A stretch of DNA of 62,567 nt, filler included, from Hausera hauseri (lineage: Eukaryota): NCBI GenBank assembly GCA_046269625.1. It is 11 parts of 11 records of this genome, joined end to end, with 100 filler letters (N's around TTAATTAATTAA, not from the genome) between each part and the next. Parts side by side here need not be neighbours in the genome. Positions count along the whole stretch, not along the records: positions 21,222 to 25,512 come from JBJURY010653107.1; 10 more parts are not named here. One strand, written 5' to 3'. Shown here piece by piece: positions 24,282-62,567 of the stretch; within the stretch, counting starts at the first letter, position 1; every line of letters begins with the position of its first letter. Position numbers and translations under genes: made by a program. Below the pieces are notes generated by a model that had not been told where the DNA came from, did not search any database, and worked only from the letters and a program-made list of their open reading frames with translations.

Positions 24282-25326
24282 GAGACTTGTTGGGAGAAAG
24301 AAGAGGATTGGTGAGTGCAAGGAGGTGAAGAAGATGGAGGGAAATTAAAATTCTTTTTATAATGTTTACAACCAGGCACACATGATCTAGCCCGTGACTG
24401 AAACTGTGGTAGACACAAATGGGGTTTTCCACAGCGTATCGTTCGCTGTAGAACCGACAACCCACAAAACACTTCCTAGCATCCCTTCGAAATCGCGTGT
24501 GATAAAAACAAGTCATGCGTCCTCCAGGTGAAATGGATCGAGCAGGGCGTTTGGAAATGCTTCTCTCCCTTACAGGTCTGGTTTCGCTTGGTCGAGGCCT
24601 ATTAAGATTATTTAGTTGGGTAGTAATGGCTACAATTGACTGCTGTAACTCGCCAAACTGTCGCTGCATCAATTCTAATGGTTGTAAGAATGTAGTGTTG
24701 TCTGACGGGGTGTGAGCGGTTGTTGCGACTACTGGCTGTAAATTATTAGACTGCAGAATATCAAAACTTTTGTCTGCTAACAAGGCGAGTTTTTCAAGGG
24801 CAGTAGAGTCGTCTACTACAGTGAGCAGTGCCCGGACAGAGGTTGGCAAAGATGAAAGAAAATACCGACGAAGAAGATCGGCATTGTTTGTGGGAGTGAC
24901 GCCCAAGAAGCTCAATTGCGAGATAGCAGTTTTAAGGAAATCCGATGGTTTTTGATTTTCGATGGCGTGTTCATTAAAGTATTCCTGAATTATGCTGTCG
25001 ATGGAAGGGTCGGTGACATGTAAAACTGATTCATATGGCACATCATACGGGCTTGAAGAAGAGAGTATATCAGCCAGATTATTGAATTGCTGCTTGATGT
25101 TAGTTGGATGTAATAGCAGCAAACTGTTAGCCCGTGGAAAGAAATCTGTAATATGATTGGCATTGAGCCACTGCAAATGAAACTGTAATCAAGTGCGGCT
25201 CGAGTTCGTTTTATCTAGGAAAAAATCTGTGCAGGGGAGATTTGGAGATGTAGTTGGTTTATGGTCGATATGACGACAACCAGATCTAACTTTGGTTAAG
25301 TTTTCTGCAGAAGGATCACGGTCTGA

Positions 25327-25512
25327 TCCACCACGGATACGAAAATGAAGAGTGAGGTGGATGATTTTGGACGAAAATGCAAAAAGCGGATCATGGATAT
25401 GAAGTATTTGGTCGTGATATAATAAATAAAAATCCGATATATAAAGCATGAGGGCCTAATGTCTGTGAAGACAATGTAAAGTCTCTTGGTTTGTGGCAAT
25501 GAGAGTGCAGAA
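25327..25512 (-). other. Ubiquitin-like domain ending in di-Gly at the N-terminus of Gypsy Gag
   Basis: FCTLIATNQETLHCLHRH*ALMLYISDFYLLYHDQIL...IHLTLHFRIRGG-S, in frame with Gag; compare ubiquitin LHLVLRLRGG. Confidence 0.65.
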
Positions 25513-25789
25513 NNNNNNNNNNNNNNNNNNNNNNNNNNNNNNNNNNNNNNNNNNNNTTAATTAATTAANNNNNNNNNNNNNNNNNNNNNNNNNNNNNNNN
25601 NNNNNNNNNNNNTCAAATGGCTAAACAATTTGTTGCAGATCAACAAACACCGACAACATTTACCTATCAATTAACAACCGGACAATGCAAAGAAACTGAT
25701 CCCAGTGCAAAAGAGCAGAGACCTGATGAAAATTCTGTGTCTAAAAATACTGTAAAAAAGATAAAACTTGATGAATAATCTGTTATTTG

Positions 25790-28700
25790 TATTTATTTTG
25801 ATGTTGCGCCTGACCAACTCATTTCTATTCGACCGCCTGAATATATACTAACTACATTACATTTGTACACTTTACGATTTTCATCTTCTAAGGTTCAGTA
25901 CGGTCTTGAAGTTTTGTTTTCGAATGCTGAAGATGACTATAAAGAAGCTTACATTTCTCGTAGAGTCGTGCCTTATGAGCGATCTTATCCTCAATCTGTA
26001 GACGATGGTTTACGTGAGGAAATTGCGATATTTGCCGAAATGGATAGTGGATGGAAGATAGTTAAGACTTTAAAGTACTGCTTCCATATTGTGAAAACGA
26101 GCACACTACCATATTTGTCCGGATTATCATATCTGCCAACATCTGAAGCCTTACGAAATGCAACGGCCGTTGTTAATGTACAGAATAAGGACAATTTGTG
26201 TTTCTTATATTCAATTATGGCAGTGACCAAGTATTCGGCTATCGACCATAATAGATGTAGAGTTAGTAATTACACTCCTTTCTTAGGTGAGTTTAAATAT
26301 TCCTCGGATGATATGCCTACAAAAATATGTAACATAGGTAAATTTCAGAGACAAAATCCACAGTTGTTAATTACTGTCGTTTTGTTTCACGAGGATGAAG
26401 ATGAAGTTGAGTTCAATGAGGATATTGTAAAAAATCTATTCGTTGATATTTTGTATCAAAGCAAAAATCCGAATGGTACTGTAGTGAACTTGTTGATTTT
26501 GGAAAATGATAATAGGTTTCACTATGTTGCGGTTCCTAATCTTAATCGACTATTGAACATACGTTCTAACAGTATGAGAATTCAATGTAAGCATTGGTGT
26601 GAGAAATGTTTGCATGGCTTCATGTATGACACTGCTTACGCTAAGCATTTACCAATTTGTATGTCTTCTTCCAAGTGTATGACTTTGTATAAAATGCCCA
26701 AAAATAATTTTTGTGAATTTAAGGACTGGGCAAAATCAATAAGTCGTCCTTTTGTAGTATATTCCGACTTTGAATCTGTTTGTTGTTCTGATGATACTGT
26801 TAAACATATTCATTTGCCTGCTGCTGCCGGTCTCTTATTAGTTTCATCAACAGGTATTGAATATAGACTATTTGTTTGTGAAAATTCTACTGTTAAATTT
26901 TTGGCTTGTTTAGATGAAATTTGTAAAACCACAGTTTTGCCTTGCTACAAAAATTCGAAAAAAACGATGATCCCGTTAATTTTTGTTGAATGATTTTGGA
27001 TCAAAATTGCCACGGCTTGTTATCTTTGTCAGGAAAATGGGTCTGACTTTGTTCGAGATCCCTTCCTTGTTGCGGGCAAATTCTTAGGACCTGCTTGCAA
27101 TTAATGTAACGTGGCTCGTCATATCAGATACAATTTACCGGTTATGTCTCATAATTTGCGTGGATATGATCTTTGTCATATTTTAAAACACGCTTTAAGT
27201 AAATTTTATACTTGGGAATTAAGTGTTATTCTTCAAACAACAGAAAAATTCCTGACAATACAGGCAATTATACGCTGCTCAGGTAAAACGTCAGTTTCCA
27301 TTTGATTTCTGAACTCCTTGCAATTTTTACTGGTTTCACTTAAGACTTTAGCTTCGAACTTAGATAGCTGCCCATTCACTGAATCGGCTTTTCCATCTGA
27401 CATCATTAAGGGTAAAGGTATTTTTCCATACACTGCAGCGAAAACATTCAGTGATTTGCAGTCGATTTCGGAATTACCACCAAAATAAGATGTTGTTAGC
27501 GATAGCGATTATGGGGAAGCGCAACTTATCTGGTCAAAGTATAGATGTAGTTGTCTTTTAGATTACATGTTGGTATACATAAAACTCGATGTATATTTGT
27601 TAGATGTTTTTGAACGGTTTTGAAAGCAGGTTAAGTTGTAGAATGGTTTAGAGGCGATTAATTTCGTATCCATTCCCGGAATATCTTGTGAAACAGTATT
27701 GAATACAGGTCTTTGTAAGACTGAGCTAATTCGAGATCGTGAAATGTGCAGTTTCTTTCAATAAGGTATTCGCGGTGGCACGACTTTTGTAAATATGTAT
27801 CGGGTTACTACCGATGAAAGCACCAGTCTCTTTCATATAGATGTAAATAATTTGTACTGCTGGGCTTTATCGCAACTTTTGCCATTTGCGAATTTGGTGT
27901 GGATTTGTAATCTTGAAAAATTAAATAGTCTTATTGAACAATTGCCTTATGTTGACACTGCTAGGGAAAAATGAGGCTTAGTCTTTGAAGTTGATTTAAG
28001 CATTCCAGCTGATAATCACGATAAATTTGACCAACTTCCTCTTGCTCCAATCAATCAGTGCCTTCCTGGTTCAACAATCAAGAAATTGTTGCTGACACAT
28101 GAGCATAAGTCCAGTTATGTTATTCACTATCGGCTGTTACAGTTATACATCGAGTTAAGCGCTGTAGTTGAGAAGGTACATCGGGCTGTTGAGTTTGACC
28201 AGGGTTATGTTTATAAGGATTACATAGATATAAATATTGCTAAGAGGGCTGCAGCGAATAATACTTTTGAAAACGGCTTCTTTAAGCTTAAAAACAACAG
28301 CTTGTATTTGAAAACAGTTGAAAACCTGTTGAAAAGGTCAAACTTGAGGCTGTGTAATAATGCTAAAAAGCTAATTACATATGCTAACAAGGCTCAGTTT
28401 AAAGAGAGTATTATTATAGCCGATGAGCTGGTTGTAGTTCTCCTCGATAAAGACATGGTTACATTAGATAGGCTCTCCTAAATTGGTCAGGCCGTACTTG
28501 ATCTGTTCAAGTTACGGATGTATGAACTGAATTATATCGATTTGGAGACGTATAGGCAACAGTTTCATTGTGAACTTAATATTATAGCCGGTGACACAGA
28601 TAGTTTCTTCCTCGAATGTCGTGGTGTTGATTTGCGATCACAGCTCTTGCCGACAGTGATTTTTAATAAACATTTGGACACTTCGAACTATAATAAAAGT

Positions 28701-30119: not shown

Positions 30120-30932
30120 TTACATCCAATTCATCAGCATCATCAAGATACTCACAATAATTATCAACATCAAAAATCCTACTCCTGCCGTACCAAGCAA
30201 ACAAAGTTTCTTGGAATTCACAGATTTGTGATGATCAGCTGCTGCACTCAATTCTTCCTCAGCATTCGCAACATATCTATCTGCAATTTCAATATTATTT
30301 GCAATTCGATTTATCTCATCACCTTGCTCATAAACTAACGCACTCAATTTTACAAACATGTCTTCAATTTTCACAAGATCATTTTCAATCTTTTCACACT
30401 GTTTCATATCTTGCAAATCTTGTTCAGCTTGTTGATGTTCCAAAATTGACAATTGAAAATTATTTGTTGGTGCTGCACATTGCCAAATATCGTTATTTCT
30501 CTGAGACTCCAAGAAAATTGGTAAGTTTACACTTGTTGAGTTTCCACGTAATGCTGATTGAATATCTTGACAAACCTTTTGAAACATTTTGACCTCATAT
30601 TTTGCCTGTGTTTTCAAACAAGCTATTTTGTTTGTCTTATTTACAAATTCTTTATGATGCTCTTCTGGCAATGACAGACAATCAATATTTCTTCTGACGT
30701 CTTTGTAAGCAATGTCAGTTTTGTGCATCCAATTTTCGTATGCACTAATTGACCCGACATGCATTTTTCTCCACATGACATTATGAGATTTGTTGTTTGT
30801 TTCTAACCTTAATTTCTGTAGGGATTCTTCAATGATCCTGACTTTTGTATCCCATGACTTATCATGCGTGGTACTAATTTCAGTACTGTTGATATTAGCA
30901 GAAAACGGAAACATATTCAATATGACAGACAT
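30120..30932 (-). CDS. Syntaxin (Qa-SNARE), possibly syntaxin-17-like; intact and intronless
   Basis: SNARE motif IENDLVKIEDMFVKLSALVYEQGDEINRIANNIE, a C-terminal TM helix, and an N-terminal WRKMH..SISA segment resembling STX17 WDKLHEEHINA. Confidence 0.8.
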   Translation of the reverse strand: MSVILNMFPFSANINSTEISTTHDKSWDTKVRIIEESLQKLRLETNNKSHNVMWRKMHVGSISAYENWMHKTDIAYKDVRRNIDCLSLPEEHHKEFVNKTNKIACLKTQAKYEVKMFQKVCQDIQSALRGNSTSVNLPIFLESQRNNDIWQCAAPTNNFQLSILEHQQAEQDLQDMKQCEKIENDLVKIEDMFVKLSALVYEQGDEINRIANNIEIADRYVANAEEELSAAADHHKSVNSKKLCLLGTAGVGFLMLIIIVSILMMLMNWM

Positions 30933-32251
30933 TGATTACTGTAGTATTGTTCACAAATCTGTATGATATTTTTATAAATTTTTTAATAAATGAAAGAAGA
31001 TTATTATCCAAGTTTTTTTATCTAATTTTGTATTGGATGATTTTAGTAAAATGTTTGAATGAATAATTTGTTAAACATTCAATTCTGGCATCAGGAAGGA
31101 TCAAGAAGGACGTGTTCACAAGAAAATTTATCAAATTGAATAAAATCGTATTATAGTTTATGTTGAAACATTTATACATATTAAAATGCATGGAAACAAT
31201 GAAAAAAATTATTTGTCAGATTTTTATCATTTGAATTTTACAGTGAATACCACATTTGGTTCTTGACAGGTAAATAGAGTTTTGCAGCATGAAACTAATT
31301 CAATGAATTGATTTTAATTTCATTTACATGATTTCGTACTTTATTGACTGTTCTGCAAATTATGTAAATGAAATTAACATTTTGTTCATTGGATTGGTTT
31401 TTATTGGTTTCTTGGTAATGTATGAATTTGTACATTGCATCAAACTTTTAGTTTGCTACATTTATCCATCTGTGTTTGTCTCGAAATGAAACATCTGCAT
31501 CAGGGAGAGAAGAGGGGGCCGTCATGGCGAAGAGGATTGTGTTTAGCCTTCAGTGAAGAAATAATGGTGCGGAGAGGGCTTGTGCATTCTGTCCGATATT
31601 CGGTGATGATGAATCACTTAAGATGCACTTAGAGGCTTGTATCTGTGTTATAATCTATGTGCTGATGCATCCGCTTGTGCTTGTCTGTTGATAATTTATT
31701 TCAAAGCGTCTTCGCCCTTACAATCGCATCTAGTCAATTTTGCGTTGTATGGTTTGAGAATCCGTCACGATCATTGCATGCAATTTTCTCTTATCACATA
31801 GCCATCTTAGTTCTGCTGTTGCCATTTTTATCTCCCGCAGCGCCCAATTCGTGGATCCCGAAACTAAATTATAAATAAAATTATTTTTTTTTTAAATTAT
31901 TAAAAAAATCATAAACATGATTTTATACAGGGCGCCCTTGACATTCACCTATCAGTACCTGGCCAGTCTTACACATTATGTATAGTGTATACATCGACGA
32001 TGTTGATTGGTGGACTGGATGTGGTAACTGGAGGAGAGAAGACGAAGCTGTCATTGCCCATTGAAGGTAAATAGCGATTCTTGATTAGGAACGAACATCA
32101 CAACACACTTTCTCAGTCAGAACCTGATTTTGCGATCTTCGGATCTTTCCANNNNNNNNNNNNNNNNNNNNNNNNNNNNNNNNNNNNNNNNNNNNTTAAT
32201 TAATTAANNNNNNNNNNNNNNNNNNNNNNNNNNNNNNNNNNNNNNNNNNNN

Positions 32252-37528: not shown

Positions 37529-37781
37529 GTGAGTAGCTTGATTCATTCGGCATTGTCATTGATCCACAGTCATCGAGCGTCAGCTCTTATTGAAACATCA
37601 TTCGGTATTACCTCTTGATCTGTCTTGTCTTGTCTTCCATTCCATTCACAGTCATTGAGCGTCAGCTGTTGNNNNNNNNNNNNNNNNNNNNNNNNNNNNN
37701 NNNNNNNNNNNNNNNTTAATTAATTAANNNNNNNNNNNNNNNNNNNNNNNNNNNNNNNNNNNNNNNNNNNNCGACTGGAAA

Positions 37782-38075
37782 TTTTCATTCTGCAGACTGT
37801 TATAGACGTCTCTACTTCCAATTATTAAAAATTCCAATTTATGAAGTCGAAGCTATGCAACAGTTTTGTTGTGTTTTTGTTGATATTCATATTCAAGAAC
37901 AAATGGTAACTATTGTAACTTTGCCTAAAACTGTAAGTGCATCAGATTTATTAGCCGAGACTAAACGTCAGGCAAGATTAACAAATATTAGTTATCATTC
38001 CTATCGACTCTTCGAGGTTGTCAATCACAGAATCATCAGTCTTATTCCATTGAAATGGAAAATATCAGAGTTGGA
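37782..38075 (+). pseudogene. USP7: USP7 (HAUSP) C-terminal UBL-region fragment
   Basis: RLYFQLLKIPIYEVEAMQQFCCVF...DLLAETKRQARL...YRLFEVVNHRI aligns with USP7 [23 protein letters not shown]...DLLEECKKAVEL...LRLLEIVSYKI; similarity is then lost. Confidence 0.65.
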
Positions 38076-38624
38076 ACCGAACGCCGAATCTTTGGGCACC
38101 GAATTGACATGGAGTTTTGATCGAATACGTGCAGATCGTAGCAAACTGGAAATAACCCACGTATATAAAGTGAAAAGTCATTTAGATGACAGTTTACCGG
38201 CCGAATTAAATCATTATATTTATCGGAATATTGACAAAAATGATCATACGGAAATCACTTGCCAATCGGAAGTTGTTTCTGTTGAGGAAATTGCCATGGG
38301 ATCGAATAAAGGAAAATTGTCTGTTGGAATAAACTCCTTTACTAAATCGGACGATGCGAATAGAGTTCGACATCAAATTGTCAATCATGTCGCAATTGCG
38401 GCTGGCGTCGCACCTGAGACGCCTTTAGCAAAATCTGTCCAATTACAACTTGACGATAATCCTGTTGGGTGTGTGGTCAACGCTGAACTGCAAGTGGGGT
38501 TCTCAGCTACCCCGCAGTTTGCGGCTAGTCACGGCGAGACTAAAGCCCCGGCCGCCCAGCCTGTGCCATTGGGTCGGACGGCGCAGTTCTTTGCCGCACC
38601 ACGACACGCCCCCGGCCACACGAC

Positions 38625-38843
38625 CTTTCCTTATCTCCTTTTCTTTTTTTCTAAACAACAGACACATTTGCACACATACAGTAATACATGTAAACATAGC
38701 TGCCATCCATAAAATCATCTCAACTTCTCTTCACTCTTCTGACTTCTGTCTCACACAATGGATTTGTAGTGCCTTTCGCTGGACCCCTTCAACCTTCCAC
38801 AACTTGTGTCTGCCTTCACCTTCACTTCCGTATCCGTGGTGGC
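38625..38843 (+). other. Ubiquitin-like domain ending in di-Gly at the N-terminus of Gypsy Gag (one frameshift)
   Basis: FLISFSFFLNNRHICTHTVIHVNIAAIHKIISTSLHSSDFCLT/HNGFVVPFAGPLQPSTTCVCLHLHFRIRGG-MD; beta-beta-alpha-beta-beta-beta hydrophobic pattern; homologous to 25327-25512. Confidence 0.65.
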
Positions 38844-41800
38844 ATGGATTTATCACCCACAATTGATACCACGAACAAACTCACCAAACCACAGATTTAT
38901 ATGACTTACTTACCCAAACAAAGTGCTTCAAACACTTTGACACAACAAACACTCCTCACTCATGCACCCTGCACAGAATACTTCCTCGTCAGCAAAAACT
39001 CTACTTAAACTTGGCTAAAACTGCATAAATTCTGGTTCCAATCACAAAACGTCATCGACTCTTTATCCAAAGCCAACAGCCTTTTTTTTCATTTATCAGC
39101 TTCCATCAAAACTAAAATTACCAATATCATCGACATCCTTCATCACACCGACCCATATACTCAACTGTATAATGCCGTTTTCAACTTACTGAGCCGTCAA
39201 TTGACTCTGTCATTCAAAGATTCTTCAACGACAATGCCATGGGCCTTCAGAAGCCTTCTAAATTCTTGCGCACATCTTTGTCTCACCTCAATACCCTTGG
39301 CGTAACATCTGAGCATAGTTCATAACTTCTTCGTCGCTACTTTTTAAATGCATTGCCCCTTCAAATAAGAGCTTTGATAACTGTGGTCAAAGACTCCACG
39401 GCTCTGGAAAAGCTAGCCGAACTGGCGGACAAAGCAAATAAAGTACTGCACTCACACACAGCACCAACTATCTCTGCGGCATTAACAACAGGCCAACGAC
39501 AACAAAATGTAATGCTGCAGCAAAAAATTACGCAATTACGCACCGAAAATTAAATCTTACAAAAGACAACTAACAACATAAATGAGAAATTAAATGAGTT
39601 AACGCTGTCTCGACGCGGTTTTTCTAGGGCTGCTTCCCATAATGTATTTAATCAACGTCAAAGACGGTTGCCTTCGCCCGCGCGGCAGTCTATTTGCTAC
39701 TACCACAACAGATTTGGTAATAATGCTCAGAAATGCTGCATCGGTTGCATATTTTATTACCCAGACTTTAATACAAGCAACATCGTTTGCATCTATCACG
39801 CAAAATTTGGAACAAACGCACAAAAATGCCTACCTGGCTGTAACTACAACACACACAATAAAACCAACGTTACTAATTTCACACAAAATAGTAGGCCAAA
39901 CTCGCCAGCTACAAAATCTGATTTCGCCGCTAGGACACACGGCAAGTCCTAGCAAAGGCAACAACCTTCAGAAAGATAGCCGACATATTTTCTTTGCTGT
40001 ATTCACGTTGAAAGCAGCAGTTGTCACTCAAACAAAGCAAAAAATTAACTTTCTTATAGACACCGGCGCAGCAATCTCTTTACTACCACCAACACAACAA
40101 ATCCAAAACAATTTACCTTCAAAAGAAAGCAACTTTTCACTGCGTCCGGTGAACCTTTACAAATTTTTGGTGTTACCAAATTAACGTCCACTCTTCCACA
40201 TTTCCCAAACACATTCGCATGGAAATTTACAGTAGCTAATGCACGTACACCTATATTGGGTTCAGACTTTTTGTCCCACTACAATTTACTTGTAAATTGC
40301 AAACGATGTTCCTTAAAGTGCGGAAATAATCTTAATCAAATTAGCAGCATTTCAAGGACCACCCGGGCTATTGCTTCCAGCAAGTCAATACTGAAGAAAA
40401 ATACTTCCGATTGCAATTATTTTTATACTCACTCATTATACAGAAATTTTTACTACGGTGACAAATACGATATTGCCAACTGCATGGCACCTATTACTAA
40501 CAGTACCGCTGCCAACGCCATCTTCAATACGAACATCCTGAACCAAATATCACCCTGTCACAACACCTTGTCTACAACTTATACCGCAGCTGCATCCAGT
40601 TACGATGCATCGACACCATATGAATACTTTTCATCGTCGCCCTCTGATCTACAACAATACATTTCATCTTCATGCACATATCTGTTGCAAAAAGATAAAT
40701 CATTCGTACCACCTCAATCCACCTTCCATCACATAGTAACAGCACATCAAAGACCAATACGTCTAAAAGTCCGTCCGCTATCACCTCGCCGCAGACAAGA
40801 AGTAGAGGCTGAGTTCCTCAAACTGGATAGATTAGGAATAATCAGAAGATCTAAATCCCCCTGGTCTTTACCACTGCATGTGGTTCCAAGAAAAGATGGT
40901 ACCTTTCGCCTATGCGGTGATTACCGCCAAATCAACACCATAACAACAATGGATGCCTACCCTCTACCATTAATCAACGACATCCTTCACAGGCTCCATG
41001 GTTCGACCATTTTTTCCTGCATTGATTTACACAAACCATACCACCAAATTCCGGTGGCCCAGCAGACATTTCGAAAACGGCTGTCATCACACCTTTCGGC
41101 CTTTTCGAATACTTTTTCATGCCTTTTGGACTTCGTAGCACTTCCCAGTCCTTCCAAAGGCACATTGATACAGTTCTCTCAGGTTTAGACTTTGATTATC
41201 CTTATATTGATAATATCCTAATTGCATCATCGGCCTCGAAACAACACTCCGAACACTTACGTTTAATCTTCCAACGCTTGGACCAAAACAATTTGCAAAT
41301 TAATTTCGCCAAATTCTCCTTTTTTCAACATAAAGTCAACTTCCTAAGACATGTTATTAACTCCTTCGGACATTCACCTCAGCCAGAGCGCAACACACAG
41401 CTCAAAAATATAAAACTACCACGCACATCCACAGAGATGCGTTTTTTTCTCGGAATCTTGCATTTTATTCATAAGTATGTTCCACACTGTTCCACTCTAA
41501 CTGCTCCATTTGAATCATTAAGCTCTGGCAAGAAAAAACAATCTATTCAATAGACCGCCAAACTAGTCAGCACTTTCGATCACCTCGAAGATAATCTAAA
41601 ACCGTAGAAATTCTGGCCTATCCCGACTCCCATGCAGAACTCTTCTTAACCACGGATGCATCCACAACAGCTGCAGGTGCCGTCCTCCATCAAGTCAAAA
41701 GTGGATTCCATAAGCCATTAGAATTCTTCTCTCAAAAATGCACGGCACAAGAGCAAAGATATTCCACCTTTGACAGAGTTGTTTGCAATGGTCCTTGCCA

Positions 41801-43149
41801 TAAAACACTTTAAACATCTGCTAACTGCACGACCTTTTACAATACAAACGGACCACATGCCCTTGCTTCAAATTCTCATTATGAAATCGCCTCCTCCACG
41901 TCAGGAGAGGCAAATATCGTATTTGTCCGCATTTAGTTTTGAAATTAGGCACTTAAACGCAGTCGACAATCTAGTAGCTGACGTTTTGTCCCGATCGGTC
42001 AGCTCGATTGATTTCACACCAATTTTCCCTCAATCCAAACTTCAACAAAACCAGCTACCTCCTGACATCCTTAAATCTTTCAAATCGTGCAAAATCATCG
42101 ACGGTGTGGCCTTTGACACCTCCAAACCTAATAATCTTAAAGTCATCCTTTCTGAGTCGCTTCAAAAATAAGCATTCAACAGAATCCATTCATTACATCA
42201 TCCCAGTACCAAGGCTACTTTTTGACTCTTACAACGCCAAGTAGTATGGCCGTCGATGCGCTCTGACGTGCAGGCATGGGTTAGACAGTGTTTGGCATGC
42301 CAAAAATACAAAGTTACTAAGCACTAAAAGCCACCACTATTTCATTTCCCCTGCACGTCTCGTTTTGAATCCGTTCGCATTCACCTTGTAGATCCTCTAC
42401 CCTTAGACAACGGTTATCAGTTCATCCTCACAATGATGGATCGTTCCTCGCGATGGCCAGAGGCTGTCCCACTTCGGAACACCAACACAGAAACCATCGC
42501 AGACGTTTTCATCTGCACTTGGATCAGCAGGTTTGGATCACCTCGCAACATCATTTCGGATCAAGGTCCACAGTTCGGATCCAACCTGTTTAAACCTCTT
42601 GTCAATCGATTGAAATTAACCACATTCACACGTCACCATATCATCCTCAATCGAATGACCTTCTCGAATGCTTTCACCGAACGATGAAAACGTCTTTCGA
42701 AATCCTTGCTGAGTCCAATCGCAGTTGGACCACACTCCTTCCGTACGTTCTCCTTGGCTGGCGAAACACACCATCTACTTTTACGGGCTGTTCACCTGCA
42801 GCAGCATTATTTGTCACTTCCATCAGATTATTATTCGAGCTGACTGAGCTTGACAATATTCCTACACATGAAACCATACAAGGGGCACAGAGACACTTCG
42901 ATGAGATCAGCAAAGACTCATTTTGTAGACTACTTCACGAAAATAAGCATCATATACCCGACGATTTATATACTGCCAAATTCATATGGCTAAAGAATCA
43001 GACGCCGTGTGGTTTTCAGCCTTAGTATGTCGGCCCTTACAAAGTAATTCGTTTACACTCCCACAAAATCATTATCCTCAAAGACGACAAAGAAGTAACA
43101 AAGCTAAACTGGTTTCTTCATTGACGACACGTCTCCTATTGAAACCACT

Positions 43150-43860
43150 TCTTCACCAGCAACGTTACACGACGTGCAGCAATCCAATATTTCACCTTCC
43201 ATCTCTGCTCTATTTCTTAACCCACTTTTACCTACGCTTTCTCCCAAGACCTCTACATCAATTTCTTCTGACAATTCAGCCTCTTTTTCCCCATCCGATT
43301 TTGCACCTTCAAGCCTTTTCACACCTCTTTCATCCTCTGATAACAACCTGCATTCTCCTCTTACAATACCTCATCCATCAAACACCACTTTGATTTCACC
43401 AATCTCTCCATCCATCTCTTTTATCATTCCAGCCTCTTGCATACCACCTTCCAACTACTTTCCTTCGCCTTCTCTATCTTCTTGCTCTTTTCCGCTTTGT
43501 CCCCCTTCGTTGTCTTTTCTCTCTCGCTTTCACTCTCTTTTACACACGTTCCTCAGCTTCGGCGCTTTCGTCCTCCCTCTCTCCTCACACATCATCTTTT
43601 TCTCCTTTCATTTCCGCTTCGAAACTTCCTCCTCTCTTTCCCTCCATCCCCATCTCTCTTCCTCCCTTTACCACTACTTCTCTTTTATTTTCCACATCCA
43701 CTCGTTCACCCAATTCAATTCAAACTTCTACTCCAACTTCTGTCTCTCTTCCTTTATCCTTCACTACACCTTTTATTATTCCTTCGTCTTCAAACACTCT
43801 TAAACTATCTACTCTCACTATCTCTCTTCCTACTTCACTTTTTTCTTCCTCTCTTCTTTC
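43150..43860 (+). repeat. Pyrimidine-rich low-complexity tail after integrase
   Basis: About 700 bp of strongly C/T-biased sequence on the plus strand. Confidence 0.8.
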
Positions 43861-44129
43861 TGACTCGTCTAAGCACGACACAACACTCACAACAAANNNN
43901 NNNNNNNNNNNNNNNNNNNNNNNNNNNNNNNNNNNNNNNNTTAATTAATTAANNNNNNNNNNNNNNNNNNNNNNNNNNNNNNNNNNNNNNNNNNNNCATA
44001 ATTCAATCTTACAATCATCGAATGACGTTAAGGTCGGAAGGGTAGAAACGAGATCTAGGTTTCCTTTAAACAATACCTTTTTGTGATATGTCTTAAAGGT
44101 TATGCCAATCAGTGTAAGTAGATGGAAGT

Positions 44130-56371: not shown

Positions 56372-56599
56372 CCCACCTTTTAATTGCAGCCGCAAATGAA
56401 CATTTGAATCCTTTTGAATATAATATTTACTAAGTTTCCGAGAATACTTTAGTTGTTTTCCATTGTAAATTAACCGTTGTTGATTTGTTGGGATCCCTTC
56501 TCTTTCCTCGACAACCGACTTCAGTTCCTCTACTTTTTCCTACATTTTGACTAATATCGCAATTATTTTTCCCGAAATTGTCTCAAGAAATATCGCAAA
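56372..56599 (-). other. Ubiquitin/NEDD8-like domain (76 codons) fused in frame within the N-terminus of BEL Gag
   Basis: [75 protein letters not shown]; 36/76 ungapped identities to ubiquitin by manual count. Confidence 0.93.
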
Positions 56600-57224
56600 T
56601 TTTCCCTTTTATATTTTTGTTGCGTCTCCTTGCTGTAAATCCTTGAGATTGAGTACTTCTCTTTCGTCCTTTTTAAACGACTTCTGCAATATTTGTGACT
56701 TATTTCCTTCCAGTATGCAATCCTCCAATACCTTTTCCCATTTCACGCCGCTGATTTTTGGTTCTCGACCGATCCCTTTAACTCGAGGTTCCGCTGTTTC
56801 TAACTTCCAATCTCTTTTGAATTCCTGTAATACATTTAATATCCTGAGGTCAGTCGTCTCGAACAAGGACCTTTTGACGTATTTGCCTCTCCACACCGTT
56901 ACCACTAATTCTGTCAGTCGGTGTCTATTCTCTACGTCTTTAAAAACATAGACATTTTTATCTTTTCTTTTTAAATAATTATCGGCCTTGACGCAAGATA
57001 TTACAACTCCTGAATTTTGCGTCGCCTATGTGAGATAGTCACGATGTTTCATTTTATTCACTTCATAGTATCTCCTCATCGTGCATATTTTACATAATGT
57101 TCCCGCATTTATTTTAATATTTAAACGGAAGGAATAAGTTCCGAAAGCAAGGAGACAGATATGGATACTTCGAAAGAGTAATGCTTCACGTGGTCTGTGC
57201 CCGCGGATCACGGTGCAAAGCACA

Positions 57225-58859: not shown

Positions 58860-60880
58860 ATCTTGATAGGAAATCTGCATTAGCGTTAGCTTTTCCTTGT
58901 CGGTATTTTATTGAGATCTCTAAATCCTGGATTTCATTAATTTTCGACTGGTATCTCGTTGTTTCATTAGCCATTGTAAAGGTTTCTGATCAGTGTATAG
59001 AATTATTTATCGTCCAGTTATATAATGTCTGAAATATCGTAGGGCATATACTACGGCGTAGCATTCTCGCTCGATTTTTGACCACCTACGTTGTGTTTTG
59101 CTTAACGTTTTACTAAGGCATGCTATTATTCCTTCGCGTGGTTTGTTAGGAACCGATTGTCCTAAGACGGCTCCTATAGCATAACCACTGGCATCGGTCA
59201 TTATTATATAGGGATATTTGGGGTCAGGAAATTGTAATATTGGAGGTGAAGTAAGTACTTGTTTTAAAACCTCGAATGCTCTCTGGTGTATTCCTTCCCA
59301 ATTCCATGTTGTTAATTCTACTAATGGTTCAACTATACTTGCAAAATTATACACAAACATTTTGTAATAGTTAGCCATTCCTAACAGTCGTCGTAATTCT
59401 TTAAGACATTTGGGCGCTTTTAATTTCTTAAGTTTCTCTACATTTCTAGGATCAGGTTGAATTCCTTTACTTGACACTATGTGTCCAAGAAACGTGACGG
59501 TATTCTTAACAAATTCGCACTTTTTTAATTTGATCTTTAGATGAGCTTGCATTAACCTATCAAATACGTGAGAAATATCTTTTAAATGTTGTTCCAAATT
59601 TCCGGAAAATATTATTACATCGTTTATGTATACCATAAAACAAGTTAATCCTTGTAATACAAAATTCATACACCTCTGAAATGTAGCGGGTCCTTTTGTC
59701 AGACCAAAAGGCATAACATTAAATTCCCATAATACAGTTCCAGCAGAAAAAGCTGTTTTTTGTTTATCTTCTTCGGCAAATTCGACTTGCCAAAATTTAC
59801 ATGGTAAATCTAGAGTGGCAAATAGTGCAGCATTTCGTAAGGCCGTCAGCATTTCATCTATCTTTGGTAATGGATAATTATCTTTTTTGGTGACATTGTT
59901 TACTGCTCTAAAGTCAACGCGAAATCGTTGTGCTCCATCTCTCTTTTGTACCAATACTACTGGAGACGTCCATGGTGAGAAACTTGGTATAATAATACCA
60001 TGTTCAATCATTTGTGCTATTTGTTTATCACATTCCTCTTTATTGACTTCTGCCATTCGGTATGGATTTTGTTTAACAGGATATGTGTTTTCGGTAATTA
60101 TATGATGTTGAATAACGTTAGTTCTACCAATATCATTATCATTCATAGCTATGGTATCTCGATATTTGTGAAATAATTGCAGTAATTTTTTCAATTGGTA
60201 TGGGGTTAAATCGCCATCTTTAAACTTAATATTCTCATCTTCTACGAGAAACGTTGCAGCGCATACCTTGACTGGCTGTAATTGTCCTAAATTAAGATTT
60301 TGCCGTAATCTGATTTCTTTCTTATTAATGCTTTCTATTAGCAATTCCAAACATTGTACTACTTTTGGTACAAACAAAGGATATTGTAGTATATTATATT
60401 TCTCATTATTATACAAATTCGGTTCGAACATACAGGTTTGCTTGAAATATTGCGATGGTATTATTAGCATTACCACTATCTGTTGTTGTGGTTTAATAAT
60501 AACATCATGAGTCAGGGTCATACTAATTTCCTCAATTGGCAAATTGGTCATTGTGCATTTAAGGGTTTTAGTTAATAGATCCATTGAAAGTCCAGAGATT
60601 TGAGATAATACATCCATCGCTATTACCAAGGTACTGGTAATATTTTATCATCTACCACAAACAGGGTTATAGTGTATAAATTATAGTCAATTTTTATTTC
60701 AATATTTATTTTTTCTAAAAATTGTACTTGCATAGAATTAGCCGCTGCTATTACTACATCGCTTGGCATAATTTCTCCTTTTTGATCGTCCGTTAAATAT
60801 GAGTGTCGAATCACTGACACAGATGCACCGGTATCTAACAATGCCATTATGTTCAATCCACTAAATCGTATGGGAATATA
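58860..60880 (-). pseudogene. pol: aspartic protease, dUTPase-like spacer, reverse transcriptase, RNase H
   Basis: Motifs as above; a frameshift near 60625 splits the protease C-terminus (ILPVP / VIAMDVL). Confidence 0.9.
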
Positions 60881-61269
60881 CGGGTTATTTTCTGTTGTTA
60901 CTGTAGTTTGGTTCATAAAAATGAATTTTGTGTTATTTCGTCGATTCTCCGTGGTATTATATTGTCGGAGTACGTTTGGTGGATACGCAGCACTTGGTAA
61001 GCAGGAATATTTATCCGAATCTCTTATCATTGGGAGTTCGAACATGGACGTAGCTTTCATATCTTTGTGATCAAGATGTTCTGGGTATTCATATATAGGT
61101 TCGGGATTATGGTATGTTTGTGCTTCTGGCTTGAAATGTTGTCTAGCTTTCTTACTTAGCAATTTATATTTAACAAGATATTCCTCCACAGTTAAATTAA
61201 TAAAGGCTTGTAATTGTTGTTCCAATTCTGGGGCTAAACGAAATTCCTTTCTTAATTTATCAAATTCCT

Positions 61270-62567
61270 TTGCATGCCAATACATTAACACTGATTGGGC
61301 CATTAAGGGAAAACATCCCAACATAATTTGCCATGTACAACCTCGTACTTTTTTTATATTTCTGGCGGCTCCTATTTGTCTTAATATAACCAATATGGTG
61401 GTGATTATAACATATATAGCAAAAACTCCAGATATAACTTAGTCAAAAATAAGGAATTTATTCCAAAAGTCATAAAGGATCCTCTTAGCTGTTTTTTCTA
61501 AATGATCAACTGGCAATAGCATCCCATAATTAGGCGTACCATCTAATCCTTTGGTAACAGTATATACAAACTCTGTATTAACTTTTTCTCGGATGTTATG
61601 GAATAATACTTGCTTTCTTACTGCTTCCAGATCAGTTAAATAATATAATCCGTTGGTAGGAAGTTCTCTGTTTACTTTACATTTTATACCTTTATCCAAC
61701 GGTAAAAACCCAATCGTCTGTGGTATATTCATCATAATTAAAGAGCGTGTTTTAGTCCATCTTCCCTCACTGAGTTTNNNNNNNNNNTGGTGCGAAAGTA
61801 ATTCAAGTAGGTAATAACAATTTTTGAGTAATGGGATCCACATATCCAAATTTGATCATATTTTTATCGTTATACTGGACCATTAGTTCATTCGTGCAAT
61901 TGGCCTTTGAAGATGTTACGAGTGTTACTTCTATCGGTGGACATTGGTATACATGGAGTATTTCGCCTTGTACTCTACCAATTGTTCCAGGGCGATATCC
62001 CATAATTAAAGCAATATGTTTACGGAATTCTCTAGCTAATATTAAGTCATGTTGGTTTAATTTTTGAGTAATTTTATAGCCTTTTATCACCATCATATTG
62101 TGTAATTCGACTAAATCCATTTTTGCGGCATAATAAATATAATCTGTCTTGTTATTCGTATAAAGATACCACTTTATATCTTCAGTTGGTAATCTTCCTG
62201 TATTCGCTAAGGTTTCCTTTGTTACAAACAGATCATTATATCATGTAGAATAAACAGCTTTTGATCCACAAGTTGATACCGCTCCTTTTCGTGCCAATAC
62301 AATTCCGTCTCTATCGTTAGATGACATTAATACTTTCAAAGAAGTGGTCTGTTTTAAATTTCGTGATATAGGTAAGGTTATATTATGATTATGCACAGGT
62401 TTTTGATATTCATCATCGTAATATAAATCACCTTGAATTTTGTACATTGATACTTGATTAAGGAGAGCTAATAGACATATCGTGATTGTATTTTCCCATA
62501 CTAATATAGATTCTCCTAAAGTACACATTCCATTATATTATGTACACGACGGTGCGGTTAACATTTC
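61270..62567 (-). pseudogene. Chuvirus/herpesvirus-gB-like (class III fusion) envelope glycoprotein
   Basis: CTYNNGMC..LVW, TCG...YST*YNDLF, YTNNKTDY, LILA..HIALIMGYRPG..GRVQGEILHVYQCPPIEV...CTNELMV...GYVDPITQKL, then FWNKFLIF and TM VISGVFAIYVIITTILVIL. Confidence 0.75.

Follow-up and report, generated by a model that had tools for sequence, protein, structure and literature searches.

Results

Two broken Gypsy elements in the window

The window, a 62,567-nucleotide stretch of Hausera hauseri DNA, consists of short contigs strung together with N spacers between them. Two of these contigs carry a Gypsy element each, copy A and copy B (Table 1). In both, gag was followed by pol in the order protease, reverse transcriptase (RT), RNase H and integrase (Pfam, tblastx), as in Gypsy/Ty3 elements, and an LHFRIRGG motif lay in frame with the downstream Gag. 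The model of the copy A Gag resembled dArc1, Arc, PEG10 and HIV CA, with weak E-values, and Pfam matches to DUF7041 were obtained in relatives and, weakly, in copy B. No long direct repeats or LTRs were found in either contig, both of which are short. Both copies are broken: copy A contains stops at 25458-25456 and 25191-25189 and its domain is truncated by the contig end, while the frame of copy B breaks near 38645, 38753 and 39185. We note that the Gag C-terminus carries two Cys/His repeats, not one (24510-24400 (-) and 39690-39860 (+)), a feature common to the branch of relatives that bears a ubiquitin-like (Ubl) domain.

Table 1. Coordinates of the two Gypsy elements and of the BEL/Pao ubiquitin domain in the window
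Feature	Position	Strand	Remarks
Copy A Gypsy element (contig)	21222..25512	(-)	Domain lies at the contig's cut end
Copy A putative degenerate Ubl domain	25327..25512	(-)	Runs from second strand to di-Gly; contig end cuts off first strand
Copy A LHFRIRGG tail	25327..25350	(-)	Predicted deubiquitinase cut after last Gly
Copy A variable linker, predicted disordered, di-Gly to capsid	25237..25326	(-)	pLDDT; A2 column similarity
Copy A Gag: two-lobed capsid, coiled coil, two Cys/His repeats	24400..25236	(-)	Stop at 25191-25189
Copy A pol: protease, RT, RNase H, integrase	21456..24194	(-)	Stops and frameshifts; Pfam rve, Integrase_H2C2; tblastx to B
Copy B Gypsy element (contig)	37772..43896	(+)	
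Copy B leader, 312-codon open frame with USP7 C-terminal fragment	37774..38709	(+)	
Copy B putative Ubl domain, ends LHFRIRGG	38624..38843	(+)	Frame breaks near 38645, 38753
Copy B LHFRIRGG tail	38820..38843	(+)	
Copy B gag and pol, broken	38844..43058	(+)	Pfam DUF7041 (weak), aspartyl protease (weak), RVT_1; tblastx to A
BEL/Pao ubiquitin domain ending LQLKGG	56372..56602	(-)	In frame with BEL Gag; no Met at start

In run X1, 692 and 1012 contigs matched the two stretches, with depth peaking at the motif, and most contigs differed from copy A inside both of its stop codons; A and B are therefore decayed members of multi-copy families. Run X1 is possibly the window's own source, and its contigs show copies rather than independent support. 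Examination covered the 40 best-supported differences per stretch, with 92 and 131 further ones beyond these. Upstream of the copy A tail these comprised 6 non-synonymous, 3 synonymous and 1 at a stop, and in copy A Gag 10, 6 and 1 respectively. The differences around A reflect its decay and carry no selection signal for the body of the domain. Upstream of copy B, the RGG frame showed an apparent excess of differences that remove stops (5 of 13 stops); this was disregarded, as protein alignments put the leader in another frame.

Other parts of the window resemble further mobile elements. A broken frame at 62567-61400 (-), which we take to be an envelope/fusion glycoprotein look-alike, is located upstream of a further Gypsy element's protease and RT (59010-61438). 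Decayed frames at 25779-27500 (+) and 18712-19401 (-), the latter with a Pfam endonuclease VII match, are presumably look-alikes of a Polinton-type DNA polymerase region.

Conservation of LHFRIRGG between the copies

A preliminary description of this DNA had held that the two copies are clearly diverged and keep LHFRIRGG with different synonymous codons, and this was confirmed. All 8 residues were the same, with three nucleotide differences, each synonymous (His, Phe and the last Gly), in elements that were 34-51% identical in Gag and 53-69% identical in Pol blocks. A codon alignment gave identical codons at 5 of the 8 positions against a baseline of 40% (181 of 451 identical-residue Gag/Pol codons; p=0.18), so there was no excess of DNA-level conservation. 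The same description had conservation stopping exactly at the di-Gly. The linker after GG, about 30 residues in A and 40 in B, was indeed unalignable, and alignment returned only at the capsid, but similarity fell upstream as well: beyond the last 10 residues the pair was not significantly alike (750 of 2000 shuffles scored as high), and thus conservation drops on both sides of the motif. A CT..H..SDF pattern reported ahead of it crosses a frame break in copy B. Gag and Pol also hold runs of 6-10 residues identical in A and B, so the conservation of LHFRIRGG equals that of Gag/Pol conserved cores, yet its surroundings are unalignable.

Similarity to ubiquitin through a family of Gag relatives

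Judged by sequence, neither copy is ubiquitin proper: neither matched Pfam ubiquitin (PF00240), and the Arg42 and Lys48 columns differ from ubiquitin in both. A phmmer search of PDB sequences likewise gave no match for A or B, and Atlas features calculated on a 43-residue piece recognized no ubiquitin. When A and B were compared with a canonical ubiquitin profile, the last 10-12 residues alone scored; with a profile of 96 viral ubiquitins, A reached 2.0 bits and B 6.9 bits, all from the tail. The A/B pair alone is insufficient to prove a ubiquitin fold. Scanning metagenome contigs with the motif DNA returned two matches in other frames of prokaryotic-looking genes, which were attributed to chance.

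A search of 1.84 billion protein representatives with copy A returned 1134 matches at E<=0.001, and the best 150 were examined; a word-indexed protein search found two Gag-core relatives only. Among these best 150 of 1134, 46 extended 55 residues or more ahead of the capsid core. In 31 of these 46, a patterned Gly-Gly preceded the core by 7-46 residues, as it did in 27 of the 28 extended relatives ranked down to P0041. The 31 carried a domain of about 75 residues that ends in the Gly-Gly; 11 matched Pfam ubiquitin, 4 of them above the curated cutoff, and P0032 was near-canonical ubiquitin (Pfam E=3.7e-23). In P0002, one of the two proteins from the word-indexed search, the N-terminal half was unrelated, and this protein was treated as a chimera. 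The intact relative P0164 (55% identical over 99% of the query) has a domain ending LHFRLRGG and aligned across both frames of the broken copy B domain.

A profile built from the 31 relatives scored copy A at 28.7 bits, copy B (with X at one frame break) at 23.0 and viral ubiquitins at 64. With the last 10 residues removed, A still gave 8.9 bits (0 of 500 shuffles as high) and B 11.5 bits (1 of 500). When the two nearest rows were omitted, or the eight that most resemble ubiquitin, 1-4 of 500 shuffles scored as high, and a profile without those eight rows and the tail scored viral ubiquitins at 14.2 bits against a shuffle maximum of 6.6. In a six-frame scan of the window with the family profile, copy A was the top match outside the BEL element. 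Similarity of A and B to ubiquitin beyond the tail thus holds through the family profile rather than directly.

A beta-grasp (ubiquitin) fold was predicted. The P0005 domain was modelled by AlphaFold at pLDDT 89 with a beta-beta-alpha-beta-beta order, and its top Foldseek matches were ISG15, ubiquitin and SUMO (TM about 0.7; best E 2e-4). In the copy A model, residues 11-60 reached pLDDT 78-89 by blocks of 10, and the partial domain superposed on ubiquitin and ISG15 with an rmsd of 2.3-2.8 and a probability of 0.91-0.97, but with E-values of 0.6-0.8; pLDDT fell below 50 in the linker, at residues 62-66 and 69-89. These models are not independent of the profile result because their input alignments include clear ubiquitin-like rows. 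The processed Ubl that had been read from the two copies was more than that pair could sustain, but it is supported for the family by the 31 GG-ending relatives, profile recognition in the absence of the tail and the predicted fold; the processing itself is a prediction.

A kept tail and a lost surface

In the family alignment (A2), G61 and G62 were nearly invariant, although among the 31 this is by construction, as rows were picked partly by their GG. Family-wide, conservation of the last strand and tail equalled that of the capsid, and the linker directly after GG had the lowest column similarity. Tail position -4 was L, I or Y with GG in 30 of 31 rows and position -5 was R or K in 23, with RxRGG retained in only 6. 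Proline never directly followed GG (0 of 32); the next residue was S, M, G, T, A or V, grouped from the N-end-rule list, in 26 of 32 rows compared with 38% in the linker, though the rows are kin. A, B and the 31 relatives therefore all show a di-Gly, a ubiquitin-type tail and a non-proline next residue, a feature of type I Ubls. By contrast, in the relatives the Ile44 column was mostly Thr/Ser and the Arg42 column mostly Tyr/Phe. A tail kept while Ile44 and Arg42 are lost is a pattern suggestive of a protease substrate and not of a signalling ubiquitin.

One alternative is that the domain stays attached to Gag, or is cleaved by the element-encoded aspartic protease, and acts as a module for Gag folding, targeting or degradation. 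Drift of the domain body far from ubiquitin would suit such a role, and a linker predicted to be disordered would be accessible to any protease. Integral ubiquitin-like domains, however, usually lose the di-Gly, while here the tail and di-Gly are best kept rather than the surface; the absence of proline after GG and the same GG junction in the BEL element also speak against an attached module. Despite the precedent of an internal SUMO-like domain in Burro elements, described in the available text of PMC6431247, we regard this alternative as unlikely.

The motif might instead be a DNA or RNA signal, a primer-binding site or packaging signal, that reads as RIRGG by chance. It contains TGG, as primer-binding sites do, and coincides with the X1 depth peak. 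But conservation precedes the TGG and A and B diverge directly after it; differences are synonymous or L/V/I, with codon identity at baseline; and the relatives' tails vary (RLLGG, KLKGG, LPGG) at the end of the ubiquitin fold. Given the protein family, this reading is largely refuted and is now scarcely credible.

Leaders and captured host fragments

The domain is internal in most relatives: a Met lay near its start in 2 of 31 and four gene calls began inside it. Intact relatives have leader, Ubl, GG, linker and capsid in one open frame, though their leaders come from protein-level gene calls on metagenome contigs. Leaders of at least 100 residues (100-870) preceded the domain in 19 of 32 and were highly diverse, with only 2 of 210 pairs alike. 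They contained pieces of H2A, Rrp44 plus CNOT1, SCC3-HEAT, 5'-nucleotidase, RING and methyltransferase proteins, and the P0005 leader joins pieces of two different genes. The copy B leader matched Pfam USP7_C2 (E=4e-12, residues 12-110), its 3' end aligned to the stretch before the Ubl of P0006, P0005 and P0164, and in run X1 its region was present in multiple copies, from at least 38300. This USP7 fragment, a piece of a deubiquitinase beside a ubiquitin-like domain, is intronless and is probably captured cargo.

A GC-rich segment at 38540-38635 (+), just before the copy B domain, had an X1 depth of 1400-2200 compared with about 800 downstream and could be a conserved RNA signal. Elsewhere in the window, intron-free, degraded fragments of G-alpha (16035-16715 (-)), of what we take to be a CDK-like gene (about 17200-16850 (-)) and of a SNARE (30123-30935 (-)) would fit a genome that contains many retrocopied host scraps.

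The released leader-Ubl-GG could itself be the point, as a conjugated modifier or a decoy for host ubiquitin enzymes with captured domains as effectors. In keeping with this, the window copies retain R-I-R-G-G as in ubiquitin and ISG15, and pieces of ubiquitin-system and chromatin proteins occur among the leaders (USP7 C-terminus, RING, H2A). Equivalents of Arg42 and Ile44 are nevertheless lost in most rows, the former loss arguing against E1 activation and conjugation, and the leaders are unrelated, truncated scraps with no kept cargo; a modifier or decoy is decidedly improbable.

It is also conceivable that Ubl-GG-Gag is real and the host-gene leaders are accidental, the product of insertions into host genes that gene callers read through. 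The lack of an LTR in both contigs, the frame break that separates the copy B leader from its Ubl and the relatives' being known without DNA context would all be compatible with such accidents. The chance of this is slim, given that 19 of 32 leaders stay open for at least 100 codons though off-frame stops fall at about 6% per codon, that P0005 combines two genes, that most Ubls have no Met of their own and that the region upstream of the copy B Ubl is multi-copy.

Distribution and repeated origins

A quick capsid tree was built from 125 rows, leaving out 26 of the 150 matches (25 that begin inside the capsid core, and P0001); in it, 30 of the 32 Ubl rows grouped on a single branch of 34 (SH-aLRT 90). 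This branch includes four short rows, one of which begins MRLRGG, so some of these are probably late gene calls. Rows of the tree without the domain comprised 78 short and 15 long ones. P0041 and P0095, both Ubl-GG-Gag, nested among ordinary DUF7041 Gags, which suggests that Gypsy elements acquired the domain a second time.

A BEL/Pao element in the window reads as a clear ubiquitin-GG-Gag fusion. Pfam ubiquitin (E=5e-18, residues 6-75) was followed in the same frame, with stops read as X, by DUF1759 (E=1.2e-11), and a Pao peptidase lay downstream; Gag extends to about 55470 and pol to about 51100. The ubiquitin sits behind a long leader, and Gag contains CCCH fingers. A relative 58% identical starts MAFKLKGG-SE, with the junction kept; the LKGG-SE junction is that kept by relative P0004. 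The presence of a BEL/Pao element suggests an animal host (PMC3118150). Ubl-GG-Gag has apparently arisen repeatedly, in the Gypsy branch and in at least two further origins.

Discussion

As a rule, a retrotransposon's Gag is translated from a start codon of its own, and the protease of the element matures it. We consider it likely that, in this Gypsy branch, a degenerate Ubl tail fused before Gag provides a host deubiquitinase cut site that frees Gag, because the family retains the tail but not the Ile44 patch. Translation would start upstream of the Ubl and read through leader, Ubl and Gag; a host deubiquitinase would then cut after Gly-Gly, and Gag would gain a defined, stable N-terminus. 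For this, host enzymes would have to act on a domain that has drifted far from ubiquitin. The domain appears to be old, inherited along the retrotransposon branch and worn down to fold and tail.

By such cleavage the element could tolerate any host RNA captured at its 5' end, with Gag unaffected by leaders. A wider proposal is that the Gypsy branch and, independently, some BEL/Pao and other Gypsy elements have left the opening step of Gag maturation to deubiquitinases of the host, the Ubl serving as an insulator and the 5' end as a gene-capture slot; we hold its prospects to be even. Captured upstream host mRNA would be translated in frame with the capsid unharmed, and the 5' end would be a standing slot for gene capture and exon shuffling, its products released with a ubiquitin-like tail. 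If true, transposition would be tied to host deubiquitinases, and the carriage of in-frame host-gene scraps without loss of the capsid would be explained.

No description of a Ubl-GG-Gag fusion was found in the literature searched, which lay outside Repbase Reports, most subscription journals and supplements, and a Gypsy branch with Ubl-GG before Gag is undescribed within it. The word 'ubiquitin' is absent from the main text of a BEL/Pao survey (PMC3118150), and Ginger and other transposons are described in the available text of PMC2836005 as carrying OTU/Ulp1 proteases, not Ubl-Gag fusions. Burro/GYPSM1 of planarians is, like the elements here, Gypsy-type with a ubiquitin/SUMO-like domain in its polyprotein, but it is giant, the domain follows Gag and lies between MATH and BCL-2, and no di-Gly processing is mentioned in the available text (PMC6431247); in the elements here, which are of ordinary size with a Gag-pol of about 4.3 kb, the Ubl comes before Gag. 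LTR-mediated retroposition captures host mRNA, sometimes from several genes and often sense and in frame, according to the available text of PMC5131818, whereas the pieces here are fused in frame to Gag via a predicted cleavable Ubl, by which the capsid gene would stay usable.

Gypsy elements with a DUF7041 Gag, presumably the CsRn1-like clade, share the capsid type, the Cys/His C-terminus and the PR-RT-RH-IN order; they differ in that most relatives lack a Ubl and begin no more than about 55 residues ahead of the capsid. Cellular ubiquitin precursors (polyubiquitin and ubiquitin-ribosomal fusions) share the layout, Ub-GG followed by a product that deubiquitinases release. They begin with near-invariant ubiquitin and supply free ubiquitin, whereas the domain here is internal and without the Ile44 patch.

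The principle of ubiquitin before a viral protein is known from pestiviruses. In cytopathic strains (BVDV Osloss, CP1 and CP Rit), as here, an internal ubiquitin directly precedes a viral protein, sometimes behind another host fragment and with its first residues missing, and hydrolases make the N-terminus (available text of PMC8310069 and PMC13517609). These inserts, cut by cellular hydrolases, release NS3, and release works even behind an S27a fragment and without the first three ubiquitin residues (PMC8310069). This precedent supports a host-cut reading, by analogy, for the elements described here. The pestivirus inserts are recent, occur in single strains and copy host sequence almost exactly, whereas the domain here appears old, branch-wide and worn, and stands before a capsid; if our proposal is correct, the pestivirus trick has here become a stable, heritable retroelement strategy.
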